DNA of 62,589 nucleotides, filler included. It is 8 parts of 8 records of this genome, joined end to end, with 100 filler letters (N's around TTAATTAATTAA, not from the genome) between each part and the next. Parts side by side here need not be neighbours in the genome. Positions count along the whole stretch, not along the records: positions 17,714 to 27,670 come from SRR31156797_42222; 7 more parts are not named here. One strand, 5' to 3'. How positions within the stretch are numbered: the first letter of the stretch is position 1; the number at the start of each line of letters is the position of its first letter. Under the pieces are notes generated by a model, which was given only the letters and a program-made list of their open reading frames with translations, was not told the origin of the DNA and did not search any database. The translations under genes and the position numbers were made by a program. Shown here piece by piece: positions 6,809 to 55,180 of this stretch.

Positions 6809-6908
6809 NNNNNNNNNNNNNNNNNNNNNNNNNNNNNNNNNNNNNNNNNNNNTTAATTAATTAANNNNNNNNNNNNNNNNNNNNNNNNNNNNNNNNNNNN
6901 NNNNNNNN
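6809..6908. other. Artificial contig spacer
   Basis: 44 N + TTAATTAATTAA + 44 N. Confidence 0.98.
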
Positions 6909-16535: not shown

Positions 16536-17613
16536 ATGGCCGAAAAGAAAAAATGCTGGGAAATCTTTCAATGTATGGAGAGAAAATGTCCCGCGTACAG
16601 GTCCGAAAAAGAACATTGCTGGCTGGTGGATGGTACCCGCTGCCATCATGGAATTCAGGAAGATGTTCTCGAAAAGGTGGATCTGTGCATTGAATGTGAG
16701 GTCTTCTGCGTCAATATGGATTTGGCGGCCATGGGGGATTCCTTCAAGGCTATTTCCGGGAAATTTTGGCAGACGCGCAATGCCCTTGAAGCAAGGGATC
16801 GGGAATTGGAAAACATCAGCCTGGAGATGGCGCTGGGGCTCTCGGAGGTTTTCGAAGCGTTAAAGAAAATTTCTTCCGGAGACCCGATGGTTCGGATTCC
16901 GGAAGAGTCCAGCCTTGAGCTGATTTCAAAATTGAAAGAACTGGTCAACAAAACAGCCGAGAATCTGGGGGAGATGGTCGATTTATCCCATGAATTTGCC
17001 ATGGGGTTGGCCGAGCATTTTGATGTGCTGCACCGTGTAATAAGGGGTGATCTCATGGCGCGGGTTCGAGGGGAATCCAATATTGAACTCCTGGAATCTT
17101 TCAAGAATGTGACCAACCAGATGATCGGAAGTGTTCATGAAGAGATCAATGAACGGAAGCAGGTAACGGCGGATCTCAAGAGTAGTGAGGAAAAGTACCG
17201 TACCCTCATAGAGAATATTCAGGACGGTGTCTTCATTGTTCAGGACAATAAATTCCTCTTTGTAAATGATGCTCTGGCCAGGATGGCCGGGTACCCGTTG
17301 GCGGAACTCATCGGGATGGAATCTCAAACCATCGTGGCGCCGGAAGATCGGGACAAAATGACGGAACGTTACAGGCGGCGGATGGCAGGAGAAAACGTGG
17401 AAAAAGAATATGAATTCCGATTGCTTCACAAAGATGGTGAAACCCGCGTCTATGCAAATATGAATGTAGACGTCATTAACTATAATGATAAAGTTGCGAG
17501 CATCGGGACGGTGAAGAATATTACCGAAAAGAAGCTGGCCGACATGGAAAAACAGGAACTCGAGATCAGACTTCAGCGATCCGAGAAAATGGAAGCCATC
17601 GGCACCCTTGCCG
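16536..17613 (+). CDS. Sensor histidine kinase with N-terminal two-CW Cys-rich domain, HAMP-like segments and PAS (3' truncated)
   Basis: CWEIFQC, CPAY, CWLVDGTRC, CIECEVF; PAS core; SEKMEAIGTLA leading into the H-box. Confidence 0.85.
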
Positions 17614-17713
17614 NNNNNNNNNNNNNNNNNNNNNNNNNNNNNNNNNNNNNNNNNNNNTTAATTAATTAANNNNNNNNNNNNNNNNNNNNNNNNNNNNNNN
17701 NNNNNNNNNNNNN
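17614..17713. other. Artificial contig spacer
   Basis: N-run + TTAATTAATTAA + N-run. Confidence 0.98.
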
Positions 17714-17893
17714 AACTGTCGGGTTTTCGGCTTTGGAAATCGCATTGAGGGCCCTGAACTCCAGATCCGTCAGATCGAACTTTGAACCCTGCATCTTCCG
17801 ATCTCGGGTACCGGCTCCGACCAGGTTGATGTCGAATATTTCACGTGCCAGGGAAGCAAGTTCTCTCCGGGATTCCGGTGTCGGCATCTTCAA
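17714..17893 (-). CDS. Probable MarR-family regulator, N-terminal part (cut by contig end)
   Basis: FDLTDLEFRALNAISKAENPTV resembles the start of a MarR winged helix. Confidence 0.55.
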
Positions 17894-18444
17894 TGCTCCA
17901 GGGAAAACGAATCAATATCTGCTTTTTCGGATCAGAAAAGGGTTAATCTACAGCATCCATAAATATTTTCAACAAGATAATAATTGACCGGCAGGCAAAA
18001 ACCGGCAGGCAAAACTTCACAGTCTTACAAACCTCATACGTTTACTCCGCTTTTATGCCCCCAAATTGCCCAGAAAAGAATGCAACTCGCCAGACGCATA
18101 TAATGCATTGTTTATCCATTCGAGATGCAGCATCCATTACTCCATCCCGAATTGTATCCAACGCTCAAAAGAAATGAATCCAGAAACAAAGAGACAGTTA
18201 CCAAGCTCCCTGGATTGTCGGATTCTGTTTGAATACAGCCACACCAACATCAGCTTGCAGCATCCAAGCCGCAGCTTATCGGTCGAAAAAAAAGCTTCAC
18301 AAAAAATAATCAAAAAAAATATGCCAGGGAATATGCGAAACCCAAACAGCATTTTTGATATAAAAAACCATTTGCAACAGATGCTATGCAGATTCTGATC
18401 GCAAAAAGAAACACTGTCAGCAATTGTCATTCGAAAAGATTATC

Positions 18445-18472
18445 TTGACTTGGCCGATTCAAATCATAGACT
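18445..18472 (+). promoter_or_regulatory. Sigma70-type promoter
   Basis: TTGACT-N16-TAGACT, 54 nt upstream of the leader ATG. Confidence 0.6.
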
Positions 18473-18526
18473 GATAAGTGTTGAGACTGATAACCCCGGA
18501 GCGGTTCCGGGATAACAGCGGAAAAC

Positions 18527-18709
18527 ATGAACAAGCTTTTGAGTAAGGTCGTAGAAATGTTCAGTACAGGTACAAGTCATACCAACGCTCGTTGCCGATC
18601 GAAGCAGACATGCTTCAAGGTATCGCTAGGCGTACAGTGGCAAGTACCGTTCCGCGCGATTATCCTGGCTGGCCACTACTTCATGGACATTAACCAGCCG
18701 CCCCCGTAG
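18527..18709 (+). CDS. Putative attenuator leader peptide (60 aa) ending QPPP-stop
   Basis: Its last codons and stop form the 5' arm of the antiterminator. Confidence 0.7.
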   Translation: MNKLLSKVVEMFSTGTSHTNARCRSKQTCFKVSLGVQWQVPFRAIILAGHYFMDINQPPP

Positions 18710-18746
18710 GGTTCAGAAAAACGATAAGAGTTTTCAAACCCTGCGG
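18704..18746 (+). promoter_or_regulatory. Antiterminator hairpin
   Basis: CCGTAGGGTT (18704-18713) pairs with AACCCTGCGG (18737-18746); inner GAAAA/TTTTC extends the stem. Confidence 0.75.
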
Positions 18747-18774
18747 AGCAAAACAAAGCGACGCGGGGTTTTTT
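18736..18774 (+). terminator. Attenuator terminator
   Basis: AAACCCTGCG (18736-18745) pairs with CGCGGGGTTT (18762-18771); six-T run ending at 18774; mutually exclusive with the antiterminator. Confidence 0.8.
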
Positions 18775-18852
18775 CGTTAGAGACAGAGAAACGAACCGAA
18801 AACAGGATGCGGGACATCCGGGCGCGGTAGTTGCGCGCCGAACCAAAGAGTC

Positions 18853-19023
18853 ATGAACACAAACAACATCAACCCGAAGTGGACCAACATGATTCCTGCG
18901 GGAATCATTCGCGGCGGAATCCTGGCAGTACCGGAATCTGCACGGGTAGCGACTCTCACACGGATCGTACCGCCGCTATGCCTGCGGAGGCAGGATCCTC
19001 CGCTACAGGATGTACGCGAATGA
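18853..19023 (+). CDS. Small ORF (56 aa) with VPP and RQDPP motifs, not in ORF track
   Basis: MNTNNINPKWTNMIPAGIIRGGILAVPESARVATLTRIVPPLCLRRQDPPLQDVRE; AAAGAG upstream. Confidence 0.45.
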   Translation: MNTNNINPKWTNMIPAGIIRGGILAVPESARVATLTRIVPPLCLRRQDPPLQDVRE

Positions 19024-19430
19024 CACGAGTAAGGGCGAGAGAGCACTTGTGCTTTACGCAAACGGAAACGAAACGGTCGGGGGACGGCCGCAGACGGGAC
19101 AACCAGCTGAGCAGTGCAGAGAGCATGCTGAACGAAATTTCGCGGTCGTTTCCCCGACCTGCAGAAACGAGTCTGGGATGAACAAGAGTGACGGAGAAGA
19201 CATAAACTGGGAATGGAAACATTGGGAGTCTTTCAGTAAGGGCAATGCCCGGAAAGGAGGCCAAATGGAGTAAGGACCACACGACTGGCAGCTGCGAGGT
19301 TTGCCGGAAAGCCCAAACCCCGGTAGCGATACCGGCAAACCTCGCAACTTTTATAAACGGAAATTAGTCAGAAAACGAACAATCGATTGAAACAACAATA
19401 ACGTCAACTTGTATAACAAGGAGAAGGAAA

Positions 19431-19559
19431 ATGAGAAAGGAACTGTATTTCGGACGGACCACCACGACCATTGGTTCACACTACGGAGCGAGAATTGCTG
19501 TCAGGTGCCGTCCATTCTTGAGCGATAGCCACGCTCTGGAACGACCGCCTCCGAATTGA
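19431..19559 (+). CDS. Small ORF (42 aa) ending ERPPPN-stop, not in ORF track
   Basis: MRKELYFGRTTTTIGSHYGARIAVRCRPFLSDSHALERPPPN; strong RBS AAGGAGAAGGAAA in an A-rich context. Confidence 0.6.
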   Translation: MRKELYFGRTTTTIGSHYGARIAVRCRPFLSDSHALERPPPN

Positions 19560-19741
19560 CGCAAAGCCATGGATGGCTGCTGGGACGGGACAGAAGCAAC
19601 GAACGGCGCGATGCGCTGGAATGGGTGTGGAGAGAGAAACACTATTTCCCAATTACTTGGGACCCGAAACGGACGTAGTCCGAAGATGCTACTTGCCTCC
19701 TTTTCGACGAGCGACCCGCACGGGTCGTGTGACCTGTGAGC

Positions 19742-19772
19742 GGCTGGTCACCGGCATTCCCGGTGACCAGCC
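19742..19772. other. Perfect 13-bp hairpin at the end of the small-ORF unit
   Basis: GGCTGGTCACCGG-cattc-CCGGTGACCAGCC; no U-tract, so a terminator role is uncertain. Confidence 0.6.
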
Positions 19773-19865
19773 TCCCTCGCATTCTGGGAGAAGCAAGAAT
19801 CATCTTACCTGTATATTGATCCGTCAGGACGTTTTCATTTCTCAGATACAATCCAGAAGTCCATT

Positions 19866-20945
19866 TTATCTTTTTTTCAACATGATAAGATTGCCATCAC
19901 GACAGCAAGAAACAAGCTCTTCTTCGTCACATGAAGAATCAAGTTCACCTGCTATTAAATGGTGCATGGAGTTTTCTCCACTATAGATCACGTCAGCGTG
20001 CCAGAATCCTTTTTCGTCTTGTGATAGTTGAGTAATGTTTCCTGAATACCCAGTGCAGTACAGTTCCTCCCCCCGAGTATCCTGATCCAGATCTGCAATA
20101 ACAGCTCCACGAATTTTCCCAGTGTCGCGAGCCACAATATCTGATCTCCAGTAGCATCCGTCATGCTGCATAAGTGCCAGTTTGCCATCGTCCCCACCAC
20201 TGAGTATTCGACCGCCTGCAAACGCAATCCGGCTCTGACCAGCAGAATCCGAATACACAACGTCATGACACCAGCCCAGTTTTCCCTTCCAGAGGACGAC
20301 GATCTGCCCATCCGTTCCGCAGACGAGAATCTCGTTGCCTTTTTTCTCCGGGAGAATATCGTCGATGAGAGCGATTTTCAGGCGGCGATTGGCGACATAG
20401 ATGGTTTCTGCGGTCCACTTGTCTTTCTTGAGCCTGAGAATTTCTACTCGATGGTTGAATCCAACAATGATAATTTCTGTTCCCGGATGCTCCTGATCCA
20501 CCTCGCCAATAGCGACTCCGTGAACCGCATGGTTGCTGGTATAGATAGTCTCCGCTTCCCATTTTTTGTGGTCTTTATACAGCATCAATACCTGACCCTG
20601 GCCAGACAGAGATTCCTTGCCCTCCAACATGCCTACGCCAATGAACTCGTTGCCGGGATACCGATTATCCGCATCCCCGACAGCACACATGATCAATTCT
20701 CCTTTTCCCTTGTGAATGCTTGAGGAATTCCATTTCTCTTTTGCTTTGTATGCCAGGAGGATTTCTCCGGCGGAATTCACCGTAACAACCTCATTGCCGT
20801 CGAAAGCCGGATCCAGATCTCCAATTGCGGCACCATTCAGCCCACGTTGGGATTCAAGCAGTACCTTAGCACTCCATTTCTCCTGTTCTGCCAAAACCAA
20901 TGATCCTACGAGCAGAAGTACGATCCCTGAAATCGTGATTCGCAT
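19866..20945 (-). CDS. Secreted FG-GAP/VCBS-like repeat beta-propeller protein
   Basis: Signal peptide; repeated A(I/V)GD(L/A)DxxxxGNE(V/I/F) blades. Confidence 0.7.
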   Translation of the reverse strand: MRITISGIVLLLVGSLVLAEQEKWSAKVLLESQRGLNGAAIGDLDPAFDGNEVVTVNSAGEILLAYKAKEKWNSSSIHKGKGELIMCAVGDADNRYPGNEFIGVGMLEGKESLSGQGQVLMLYKDHKKWEAETIYTSNHAVHGVAIGEVDQEHPGTEIIIVGFNHRVEILRLKKDKWTAETIYVANRRLKIALIDDILPEKKGNEILVCGTDGQIVVLWKGKLGWCHDVVYSDSAGQSRIAFAGGRILSGGDDGKLALMQHDGCYWRSDIVARDTGKIRGAVIADLDQDTRGEELYCTGYSGNITQLSQDEKGFWHADVIYSGENSMHHLIAGELDSSCDEEELVSCCRDGNLIMLKKR

Positions 20946-20963
20946 TGTGGTTTCCTTTCCTGA

Positions 20964-21764
20964 TTATCGAAGAACGGTTGTATTTGCGGCATCGAAAAGC
21001 ATTCGACCGCCGCGGTTGAGTTGAATAACCAGTGCCGATGTAGGCTCAACGTCGATCATCACACCGGAAAAATCCCTTCCATCCTGCCGTACGGAGATCG
21101 ATTGTCCGAGGCCTGTTGCCCGATCCAGCCATGCCTGTCGGATTCTTTCTGATGCGTTGTGCATCGCGATTCCAAGCCAGCGATCACATTCCATGAGAAG
21201 CATTCGCGCCAGGGCAGCACGATCTACCGGCTCTGTACTTTCGATTTCGAGTGATGTGGCTTCGGTCCGTAATGTATCCGGGAAATGAACTCGGTGCTGG
21301 AGGCAGTTGATCCCAATTCCAGCCACGAAGGTTCTTCCCCCCCCAGCTCGCGGGCGGGCTTCTACTAGGATTCCTGCCAGTTTCCTGCCCTGGATCACCA
21401 GATCGTTCGGCCAGCGGATGTCCGCAGAAATTCCGGTTACTTTCCGGATGGCATCACAGGCAGCCACTGCCAGACTCAACCCCAGGAGCCCTCCATCCAG
21501 TTCCCCGGTTTCATCCACAAGTACCATGCTACAGAGAATCGAAGCTCCACGAGGTGATTCCCATTGCCTCGAAAACCGTCCGCGACCGGATGTCTGGTGC
21601 TCTGCAAACAGAATCGTCCCATCTGCGTCCTTCGATTCAGCACACGACCATGCCAGATCATTGGTGCTCATCACCGAATCATAGAGATGGATCGTTCGCC
21701 CGATCCTGTCCGGTTGCCATCCGGCAAGCAGAGATTCAGTCTGTAATGGTCCATGCATCGCCAT
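20964..21764 (-). CDS. birA: Biotin--[acetyl-CoA carboxylase] ligase
   Basis: STND, QTSGRGR, RWPNDL and KLAGILVE; no N-terminal HTH; start approximate. Confidence 0.9.
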   Translation of the reverse strand: MAMHGPLQTESLLAGWQPDRIGRTIHLYDSVMSTNDLAWSCAESKDADGTILFAEHQTSGRGRFSRQWESPRGASILCSMVLVDETGELDGGLLGLSLAVAACDAIRKVTGISADIRWPNDLVIQGRKLAGILVEARPRAGGGRTFVAGIGINCLQHRVHFPDTLRTEATSLEIESTEPVDRAALARMLLMECDRWLGIAMHNASERIRQAWLDRATGLGQSISVRQDGRDFSGVMIDVEPTSALVIQLNRGGRMLFDAANTTVLR

Positions 21765-24933: not shown

Positions 24934-25176
24934 ATGGCCAAGAAAAAGAAAGCTGCAAAGAAAAAAACAAAAAAGAGCTGCAAGAGCAAAAAGTGTGCAA
25001 ATCGGGAAGTCCTGGTTGTCGCAAGCAAGGTGAAGGCTTACATGAAAGCCAAGAACATGAATACCTCTGCCGATGCGATTCAGGCTCTGTCCGATAAGGT
25101 ATACTGCCTGCTGGACTGCGCAGCCGAGCGTACCAACGCGAACAACCGCAAGACCGTCAAGCCGCAGGACGTTTAA
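24934..25176 (+). CDS. Bacterial histone-fold protein with Lys-rich N-terminal tail (80 aa)
   Basis: EVLVVASKVK, MNTS and RKTVKPQD (RxTxxxxD histone-fold signature); RBS AGGAGA before ATG24934. Confidence 0.88.
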   Translation: MAKKKKAAKKKTKKSCKSKKCANREVLVVASKVKAYMKAKNMNTSADAIQALSDKVYCLLDCAAERTNANNRKTVKPQDV

Positions 25177-27670: not shown

Positions 27671-27770
27671 NNNNNNNNNNNNNNNNNNNNNNNNNNNNNN
27701 NNNNNNNNNNNNNNTTAATTAATTAANNNNNNNNNNNNNNNNNNNNNNNNNNNNNNNNNNNNNNNNNNNN
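27671..27770. other. Artificial contig spacer
   Basis: N-run + TTAATTAATTAA + N-run. Confidence 0.98.
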
Positions 27771-33315: not shown

Positions 33316-33415
33316 NNNNNNNNNNNNNNNNNNNNNNNNNNNNNNNNNNNNNNNNNNNNTTAATTAATTAANNNNNNNNNNNNNNNNNNNNNNNNNNNNN
33401 NNNNNNNNNNNNNNN
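33316..33415. other. Artificial contig spacer
   Basis: N-run + TTAATTAATTAA + N-run. Confidence 0.98.
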
Positions 33416-42228: not shown

Positions 42229-42328
42229 NNNNNNNNNNNNNNNNNNNNNNNNNNNNNNNNNNNNNNNNNNNNTTAATTAATTAANNNNNNNNNNNNNNNN
42301 NNNNNNNNNNNNNNNNNNNNNNNNNNNN
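42229..42328. other. Artificial contig spacer
   Basis: N-run + TTAATTAATTAA + N-run. Confidence 0.98.
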
Positions 42329-48825: not shown

Positions 48826-48925
48826 NNNNNNNNNNNNNNNNNNNNNNNNNNNNNNNNNNNNNNNNNNNNTTAATTAATTAANNNNNNNNNNNNNNNNNNN
48901 NNNNNNNNNNNNNNNNNNNNNNNNN
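48826..48925. other. Artificial contig spacer
   Basis: N-run + TTAATTAATTAA + N-run. Confidence 0.98.
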
Positions 48926-55080: not shown

Positions 55081-55180
55081 NNNNNNNNNNNNNNNNNNNN
55101 NNNNNNNNNNNNNNNNNNNNNNNNTTAATTAATTAANNNNNNNNNNNNNNNNNNNNNNNNNNNNNNNNNNNNNNNNNNNN
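55081..55180. other. Artificial contig spacer
   Basis: N-run + TTAATTAATTAA + N-run. Confidence 0.98.

Follow-up and report, generated by a model that had tools for sequence, protein, structure and literature searches.

A putative attenuator that may gate a structured RNA at an orphan locus of a planctomycete-like bacterium

In leader attenuators of the trpL, hisL and pyrL type, the position of a ribosome decides between a terminator and an antiterminator. TnaC blocks Rho and needs free tryptophan. EutX/Rli55 and AspocR are riboswitch-gated non-coding RNAs, OLE, GOLLD and ROOL are large structured bacterial RNAs, and Staphylococcus aureus RNAIII is a dual-function RNA encoding delta-haemolysin. 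The locus compared with these systems here lies on the contig at 17714-27670 of a 62.6-kb window, the whole stretch of DNA that was analysed, in which eight contigs of one bin are artificially joined. A preliminary description of the locus had proposed an attenuator that releases stall-prone peptides ending in proline-proline (PP) motifs. It is tentatively read here as an orphan, independent, attenuator-gated unit on the + strand, from about 18480 to about 19734-19780, whose product would be chiefly structured RNA and at most dual-function through a small open reading frame (ORF), ORF3; this reading falls somewhat short of probable. It is carried by sequence features, energetics, the absence of coding signal and a strand-specific sparing of helices in one relative, and from these we infer transcription, RNA ends, a ribosome as sensor and any function.

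The first 300 nucleotides (nt) of the proposed unit would form a bistable attenuator with the following features, numbered along the window.

18445 to 18472, + strand: sigma-70-like promoter TTGACT-N16-TAGACT, 9 of 12 consensus matches.
18495 to 18511, + strand: 5' hairpin CCCGGA-gcggt-TCCGGG, mean pair probability 0.99.
18527 to 18709, + strand: ORF1, 60 codons, ending INQPPP-stop, without a Shine-Dalgarno (SD) sequence.
18569 to 18648, + strand: long irregular leader hairpin of four nested helices, probabilities 0.96-0.99.
18683 to 18709, + strand: in-frame 8-codon mini-ORF MDINQPPP, in a hairpin loop.
18704 to 18746, + strand: antiterminator helix, 10 contiguous pairs of 18704-18713 with 18737-18746 (the terminator 5' arm), ensemble probability 0.35.
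18736 to 18775, + strand: intrinsic terminator, stem 18736-18746 with 18762-18771, T6 tract 18769-18774, -20.6 kcal/mol folded alone.

The promoter was present as first described, and its position implies a transcript start near 18480, about 47 nt before ORF1. Promoter-like sites as a class were not above chance here (4 versus 2.6 +/- 1.2 in shuffles). The switch that had been proposed behind it was also present. The terminator was missed by a simple terminator scan because its loop is long. Antiterminator and terminator are mutually exclusive and nearly equal in energy, with forced folds of the leader (18480-18780) at -101.2 versus -102.3 kcal/mol (difference 1.1) and ensemble probabilities over the same range of 0.35 and 0.65. 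Before the 3' arm of the terminator exists, the antiterminator is the minimum-energy fold (18696-18758). A 10-base-pair (bp) pairing of antiterminator type in the 97 nt upstream was matched by 4 of 5000 shuffles. The 5' arm of the antiterminator, 18704-18713, reads CCG UAG GGUU and consists of the last Pro codon of ORF1, its stop codon and 4 nt. When 18712 and all upstream positions were masked, as they would be by a ribosome that has reached the end of ORF1, the terminator was the sole remaining fold. No known aptamer was matched in the switch region by the 4227 Rfam models. On these predictions the switch is solid and the best-supported part of the locus; its sensor may be a ribosome or another factor.

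Free RNA would favour read-through, because the antiterminator is transcribed first. An occupant on 18704-18713 would leave only the terminator and favour termination; this could be a ribosome that pauses at the PPP-stop while translating ORF1 or the mini-ORF, or some other factor. Because the same arm is masked by a PPP stall and by an ordinary stop, the PPP motif would prolong occupancy and not alter the outcome. The end of a promoter-proximal short ORF overlaps the antiterminator arm and thereby a pairing that excludes a U-tract intrinsic terminator, as in the trpL, hisL and pyrL attenuators. The locus thus has the short ORF downstream of a promoter, the intrinsic terminator and the maskable, exclusive antiterminator of an attenuator; a regulated same-strand gene was not found between 18776 and the convergent stop at 19866. 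Unlike in trpL, hisL and pyrL attenuators, neither a biosynthetic nor any other gene follows, the ORF is putative and has 60 codons (8 if it is the mini-ORF), the only "regulatory" codons are the PPP before the stop, and the sensor could be non-ribosomal. The leader peptide would end Pro-stop as in TnaC, in which a ribosome at the stop codon controls downstream termination, as it would here; in contrast to TnaC, the terminator is intrinsic, and a retained ribosome would promote termination at this locus instead of blocking it.

Downstream of the switch, GC-rich helices are joined by A-rich linkers along the + strand, and the stems and linkers of the preliminary description proved real. The main features are as follows.

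19075 to 19159, + strand: hairpin domain of three nested helices, probabilities 0.96-1.00.
19250 to 19261 with 19695 to 19706, + strand: long-range 12-bp helix of CGGAAAGGAGGC with GCCTCCTTTTCG, in the minimum-energy fold, -21.8 kcal/mol.
19290 to 19349, + strand: 15-18 bp hairpin, probability 0.98.
19351 to 19404, + strand: A-rich linker in which divergence is concentrated.
19711 to 19734, + strand: hairpin GCGACCC-gcac-GGGTCGT (19711-19728) plus 6 nt, candidate 3' end.
19736 to 19780, no strand assigned: 18-bp hairpin (13 perfect pairs, 19742-19772) between convergent units, probability 1.00.

The read-through RNA would consist of conserved GC helices and fast-evolving A-rich linkers. Its body would be closed by the long-range 12-bp helix, and its end would lie either at the hairpin near 19734 or at the 18-bp one that follows, which lacks a U tract and is probably a bidirectional terminator. 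The whole unit would measure about 1.3 kb, at 53.6% GC compared with 49.9% for the contig. Long GC-enriched intergenic regions are a hallmark of structured RNA genes, according to the accessible part of one study (PMC8632094). Fold z-scores were -3.6 for 18473-18830 and -3.69 for 19127-19734, and -0.94 for 18826-19126, the part around ORF2. The + strand of 17900-19700 showed a strong excess of A over T, with an AT skew of up to 0.35.

Like OLE, GOLLD and ROOL, the locus is a gene-free intergenic region that is long, enriched in GC and rich in helices joined by A-rich linkers. It differs from them in having no Rfam match, and its predicted hairpins carry mostly tri- or pentaloops and few GNRA loops. 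With EutX/Rli55 and AspocR it would share a 5' termination switch gating a longer RNA without a protein gene; in contrast to these, no known aptamer is present and the payload is about 1 kb long. Such a payload had been called unexpected, a claim that is softened by the existence of these riboswitch-gated RNAs.

A word index of public runs gave two holders of the locus, X1, the probable source run, and X2, a sediment metagenome of a different study (library source METATRANSCRIPTOMIC, strategy WGS), in which the locus was 93-97% identical. The first X2 contig (18504-18825, 322 nt, 9 other letters and 2 gaps) crosses the terminator and extends 50 nt beyond the T tract, and the second (19127-19734) has 37 other letters and 5 gaps. 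X2 does not cover 17720-18489, 18930-19039 or 19810-21000 and has almost no cover on 18826-18929, and these gaps carry no evidence. The X2 contigs suggest transcription. Their depths were 5.7 and 17; neither depths nor contig breaks measure RNA levels or ends. Illumina adapter letters stood directly behind 19734 in X2, 6 nt past the hairpin 19711-19728, a position that would mark an RNA end. The nearby segment 19742-19772 is a 13-bp perfect palindrome with a 5-nt loop, 31 nt in all, which is the assembler word length, and the X1 and X2 contigs break near it, at 19738 and 19734. The apparent end near 19734 may partly be an assembly effect and not an RNA end.

The substitutions in X2 track the helices of the + strand RNA and not coding frames. 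The probability of the best partner was taken for each position of 19158-19703 (maximum span 150), and values above 0.7 were counted as confident pairs. On the + strand, none of the 40 positions changed in X2 was confidently paired, compared with 142 of 506 unchanged positions (p=5.8e-6); the depletion persisted in the worst case, with one unlisted change assumed in a stem (p=6e-5). It was found for G/C (0/14 versus 110/262, p=0.0011) and, at p=0.053, for A/T (0/26 versus 32/244). The - strand showed no depletion (8/40 changed versus 136/506 unchanged, p=0.46), and 7 of the 10 X2 changes that hit its pairs break pairing. Divergence was patchy, with 13 changed positions in 19327-19406 and none in 19287-19326; per 40 nt, 0 changes fell in helices and 8 in the linker. 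The 87-nt block 19264-19350 around the 15-18 bp hairpin held no listed change, and neither strand of the long-range helix was changed. Two changes in the leader hairpin (18575 and 18643) fall in a 2x2 internal loop.

Several observations weigh against a gated structured RNA. X2 is flagged "RNA? (probably DNA)" in the run index, which lists no holder of the locus as RNA as such; run X3 gave no aligned contig. Up to 5 differences in the contig 18504-18825 are unlisted, and conservation of the switch cannot be asserted. When pairing probabilities were summed instead, the depletion was weaker, alike on both strands and gone after A/T versus G/C stratification. No convincing compensatory pair was seen in X2, where two weak candidates were found, one of them spanning the two contigs; the sparing of stems is conservation, not covariation. 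A fold z-score of about -3.5 is not exceptional, as control regions gave -5.07, -1.45 and -4.0, the last containing a small ORF. The frames of ORF1 and ORF3 are preserved in X2, and a strong SD precedes ORF3, which leaves room for a coding role. DNA searches of 401 sampled genomes of the class of genome G001 gave 9 genomes with matches of only 22-57 nt (E 2.6e-5 to 0.009), read as chance, and single-sequence covariance models of 19236-19352 and 18564-18778 each gave 0 hits in 151 genomes, in a search run without a positive control. For now the locus is an orphan: beyond its own organism it has been seen only in one close relative, that in X2.

Other searches for a wider family were likewise blank. 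Across the window, Rfam gave no gathering-score match; a limit relaxed to E 5 gave a single 16-nt chance match in 17700-20000. The neighbouring FG-GAP-like protein of 359 amino acids (aa) has homologues that are at most 56% identical, and an exact-word scan of genome contigs with it found none. An alignment-based scan with the same protein gave 9 loci in distant relatives; these syntenic loci had no DNA similarity to 17714-19865 by blastn or nhmmer and no long spacer downstream. There was no DNA match in 5 whole genomes or in phage and plasmid collections, and no match for a 21-mer in JGI metagenome contigs or for two patterns in viral contigs. Little weight attaches to these negative results, since the closest genomes available are distant.

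The strongest alternative is that the transcript is an mRNA or a dual-function RNA with the 42-aa basic product of ORF3 as its real output, the structured RNA serving as leader and trailer; this is judged unlikely, and it can be weighed together with the coding potential of the region.

17894 to 19865: gene-less stretch.
18853 to 19023, + strand: ORF2, 56 codons, ending RRQDPPLQDVRE-stop, with the PP in the 3' arm of a GCGGAGG/CCUCCGC hairpin.
19418 to 19559, + strand: ORF3 (ORF 19431-19559), 42 codons, ending ALERPPPN-stop, with an AAGGAG SD whose GGAG lies 7 nt before the ATG.

The three PP-ending ORFs were found at the coordinates first given for them, with the PP endings and the strong ribosome-binding site of ORF3. 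This SD, the only strong one among the three, lies within an unstructured A-rich region, and SD sequences are used by some genes of the bin (a 4-mer by 13 of 33, a 5-mer by 4 of 33). In X2 the SD, ATG and frame of ORF3 are kept, while three other + strand ORFs (19010, 19556 and 19569) gain stops or frameshifts. Against a real product, an intact 42-codon frame is expected by chance at the divergence of X2, according to the arithmetic of the analysis, and ORF3 carries 3 synonymous and 4 non-synonymous changes, 4 of the 7 at third positions, which is not significant. Its codon score was -0.068, compared with -0.001 for ORF1 and 0.054 for ORF2. Real 50-codon chunks scored 0.215 +/- 0.113 (5th percentile 0.015) and spurious ORFs inside genes -0.097 +/- 0.159; codon usage of the PP ORFs lies between spurious and real, with ORF1 and ORF3 below the 5th percentile of real chunks. 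Neither ORF2 nor ORF3 had a homologue candidate among 5.8 billion proteins of near length (23-74 aa for ORF3). Hydropathy alone, checked without a dedicated predictor, showed no membrane-like hydrophobic segment in ORF1, ORF2 or ORF3 (maximum Kyte-Doolittle(15) values of 1.13, 1.51 and 0.42). As in RNAIII, a multi-hairpin regulatory RNA, here putative, would contain one short ORF with a good ribosome-binding site. The strong SD of ORF3 and the fit of its RPPP to a loose RxPP arrest pattern are why a dual function is retained as a rival.

The claim that about 1 kb holds no recognisable gene was borne out. With Pfam, the three PP ORFs and two other ORFs matched no family at a cut-off of E 0.01, and seven additional ORFs had no match better than E 0.2 (12 ORFs in all, 17894-19986). 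The maximum score of six-frame 50-codon windows across 17894-19865 was 0.103, compared with 0.13-0.40 for the neighbouring gene. This lack of coding signal in six frames makes a decayed gene unlikely. A decayed gene or a known Rfam family, either of which had been named as grounds for rejecting the preliminary description, was not found. A pattern search with ORF1 in JGI metagenome contigs gave 356 matches, of which none was confirmed. Two matches of ORF1 among 1.84 billion representatives were rejected as repeat artefacts, the matched proteins being long and internally repetitive with 5-6 matched stretches. Credible homologues of the three peptides, another proposed check, were therefore lacking in both protein and metagenome-contig searches. 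Of the ORFs expected to be kept in a related locus, ORF1 and ORF3 stay open in X2, but ORF2 lies outside its cover.

Two separate small RNAs, one of about 300 nt between the promoter and the terminator at 18775 and one of at least about 600 nt (19075-19734), would explain the same region, and this is considered quite unlikely. A promoter followed 295 nt on by a terminator is normal anatomy for a small-RNA gene, X2 yielded two separate contigs of unequal depth, and the stretch between is not significantly structured (z -0.94). However, the first X2 contig runs past the T tract, no promoter-like site was found in 18776-19127, and the second contig begins midway through the 19075-19159 domain, which is not a natural end; breaks and depths of contigs are in any case poor witnesses of RNA ends and levels.

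It is very unlikely that the region is spacer DNA without function, or what is left of a decayed gene or mobile element, with hairpins, ORFs and PP motifs arising by chance. The blanks in the Rfam, phage, plasmid, genome, metagenome-pattern and viral-pattern searches fit such an origin, as do the absence of a long spacer at the syntenic position of the 9 distant relatives and the heterogeneity of the bin, whose contigs range from 36.4% to 55.3% GC. It is opposed by the rarity of the switch pairing among shuffles, the strand-specific sparing of helices and patchy divergence in X2, and a GC content above the contig average in a region without residual coding signal in any frame.

The peptide payload of the preliminary description, in which a ribosome- and EF-P-sensing attenuator releases stall-prone PP peptides (ORF2 and ORF3) and hairpins acting on ribosomes or EF-P under translation stress, is highly improbable. 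Three of six + strand ATG ORFs of 40-70 aa in 18440-19800 have PP in the last 12 residues, compared with 12 of 155 in the whole window, the three local ones included. Two of the three PPP cases in the window are ORF1 and ORF3, and none of 2000 mononucleotide shuffles gave three or more. This enrichment is nominally above chance, but it was chosen after the fact and is explained by C-rich helix strands. The CCG CCC CCG of ORF1 spans the 3' arm of helix 18667-72/18694-99 plus the antiterminator arm, and the CCU CCG of ORF2 is the 3' arm of its GCGGAGG/CCUCCGC hairpin. In favour of the peptides, the antiterminator arm overlaps the PPP-stop, neither ORF1 nor ORF3 is disrupted in X2, and the accessible part of one study reports that a polyproline tract before the pyrL terminator increased termination in cells lacking efp (PMC5021804). 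ORF3 ends RPPP, and RxPP (x = Gly, Ala, Ser or Pro) was found among arrest-inducing sequences in E. coli screens, as far as the accessible text of that work goes (PMC12992588). Against them, the ORFs have no homologues and codon usage that is not gene-like, the substitutions track helices, and no regulated gene lies downstream. In addition, ORF1 lacks an SD and is heavily base-paired throughout, much of its sequence including the start codon lying within predicted helices, and no PPP-specific output is evident when a stall and a normal stop mask the same arm. The three PP ORFs are not supported as real proteins. A pairing switch between the PPP codons and the SD of ORF3 was also considered and dropped, since the duplexes were weak (-8.8 to -13.2 kcal/mol). 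Of the preliminary description as a whole, the in silico attenuator with a PPP-stop in its arm and no gene after it stands, but the peptide payload does not.

Membership of the RAPP/RGPP class of arrest peptides, which had also been suggested, did not hold up on sequence. The ORFs are small with Pro-Pro near the C-terminus, as in ApdA, ApdP and ApcA as presented in the accessible parts of three studies (PMC7897499, PMC10951233, PMC10987492), and the RPPP of ORF3 fits the looser RxPP pattern (PMC12992588, in its accessible part). However, the PP contexts are QPPP, DPP and RPPP, the three ORFs lack an R-A/G-P-P core, a secretory or membrane segment and a conserved family, and neither Sec/YidC nor any other same-strand gene follows ORF3. 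The locus is not an arrest-peptide system of this type.

A self-contained sensor of translation status, in which a ribosome at the PPP-stop hides the antiterminator arm, the RNA of about 1 kb is made when leader translation fails or uncouples, and this RNA, with its RxPP ORF, strong SD and anti-SD-like CCUCC tracts, acts on ribosomes, EF-P or the convergent chemotaxis/FapA gene row, is speculative in the extreme. If true, the attenuator would regulate an RNA effector in place of an enzyme. To our knowledge no attenuator class gating an RNA effector has been described in Planctomycetota, and a limited literature search agreed.

The surroundings of the proposed RNA unit comprise the following features.

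6809 to 6908, 17614 to 17713, 27671 to 27770, 33316 to 33415, 42229 to 42328, 48826 to 48925 and 55081 to 55180: the seven artificial spacers, N(44)-TTAATTAATTAA-N(44).
17714 to 17893, - strand: contig-edge gene, N-terminal 60 codons, running off the contig start, codon score 0.223, gene-like.
17949 to 17959, 18126 to 18136 and 18256 to 18266, + strand: three TGCAGCATCCA copies, one with 1 mismatch, in the AT-rich divergent spacer.
From 19866, - strand: convergent gene row of FG-GAP-like, biotin-ligase-family (BirA), FapA, response-regulator receiver (CheY) and CheX genes.

Because the contigs were joined artificially, genes that flank a spacer are not true neighbours of each other, and the sequence left of 17714 is no true neighbour of the locus. 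A PAS histidine kinase at 16536 is truncated at its H-box by the spacer. Given the spread of GC among its contigs, the bin may be mixed. The RNA unit is divergent from the contig-edge gene and convergent with the chemotaxis-related gene row. The contig-edge fragment shares 34% identity over 58 aa (pairwise E 1e-8) with a 156-aa protein of genome G005 that matches Pfam MarR PF01047; the fragment itself had no Pfam match, with nothing below E 0.2. It is probably the N-terminus of a MarR-family regulator and, in its divergent position, a candidate regulator of the RNA unit. The three TGCAGCATCCA copies, of only four matches in the window, cluster within 318 nt (17949-18266) and may be operator sites.

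A perfect tandem duplication of ACCGGCAGGCAAAA lies at 17987-18014, about 100 nt upstream of the start of the MarR-like gene, and also scores as a terminator-like hairpin on the - strand. The 37 nt at 18125-18161 were matched, with 6 differences, by an 11-kb contig from elsewhere in run X1 with loose ends on both sides, which suggests a short repeated element in the community. Further along the contig, an 80-aa lysine-rich small ORF (from ATG, 24934-25176, + strand) without a Pfam match lies in a seemingly intergenic region. With its KKKK-rich N-terminus and helical-looking C-terminal half, it may encode a small nucleoid-type DNA-binding protein.

The best relatives of the 359-aa FG-GAP-like gene product (19866-20945, - strand) are 40-52% identical and come from metagenome-assembled genomes labelled Phycisphaerae, Pirellulaceae, Isosphaeraceae and Planctomycetaceae. 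The neighbouring genes point to an uncultivated, planctomycete-like host lineage (Planctomycetota).

At present, one orphan locus and one close relative constitute a lead and not an established class. The PPP-stop within the antiterminator arm, if real, would parallel in nature the engineered polyproline-pyrL coupling reporter. As far as we know, it is rare for a termination switch to control an RNA product. If real, the locus would represent an attenuator gating a large structured RNA in a poorly studied, uncultivated planctomycete-like lineage.

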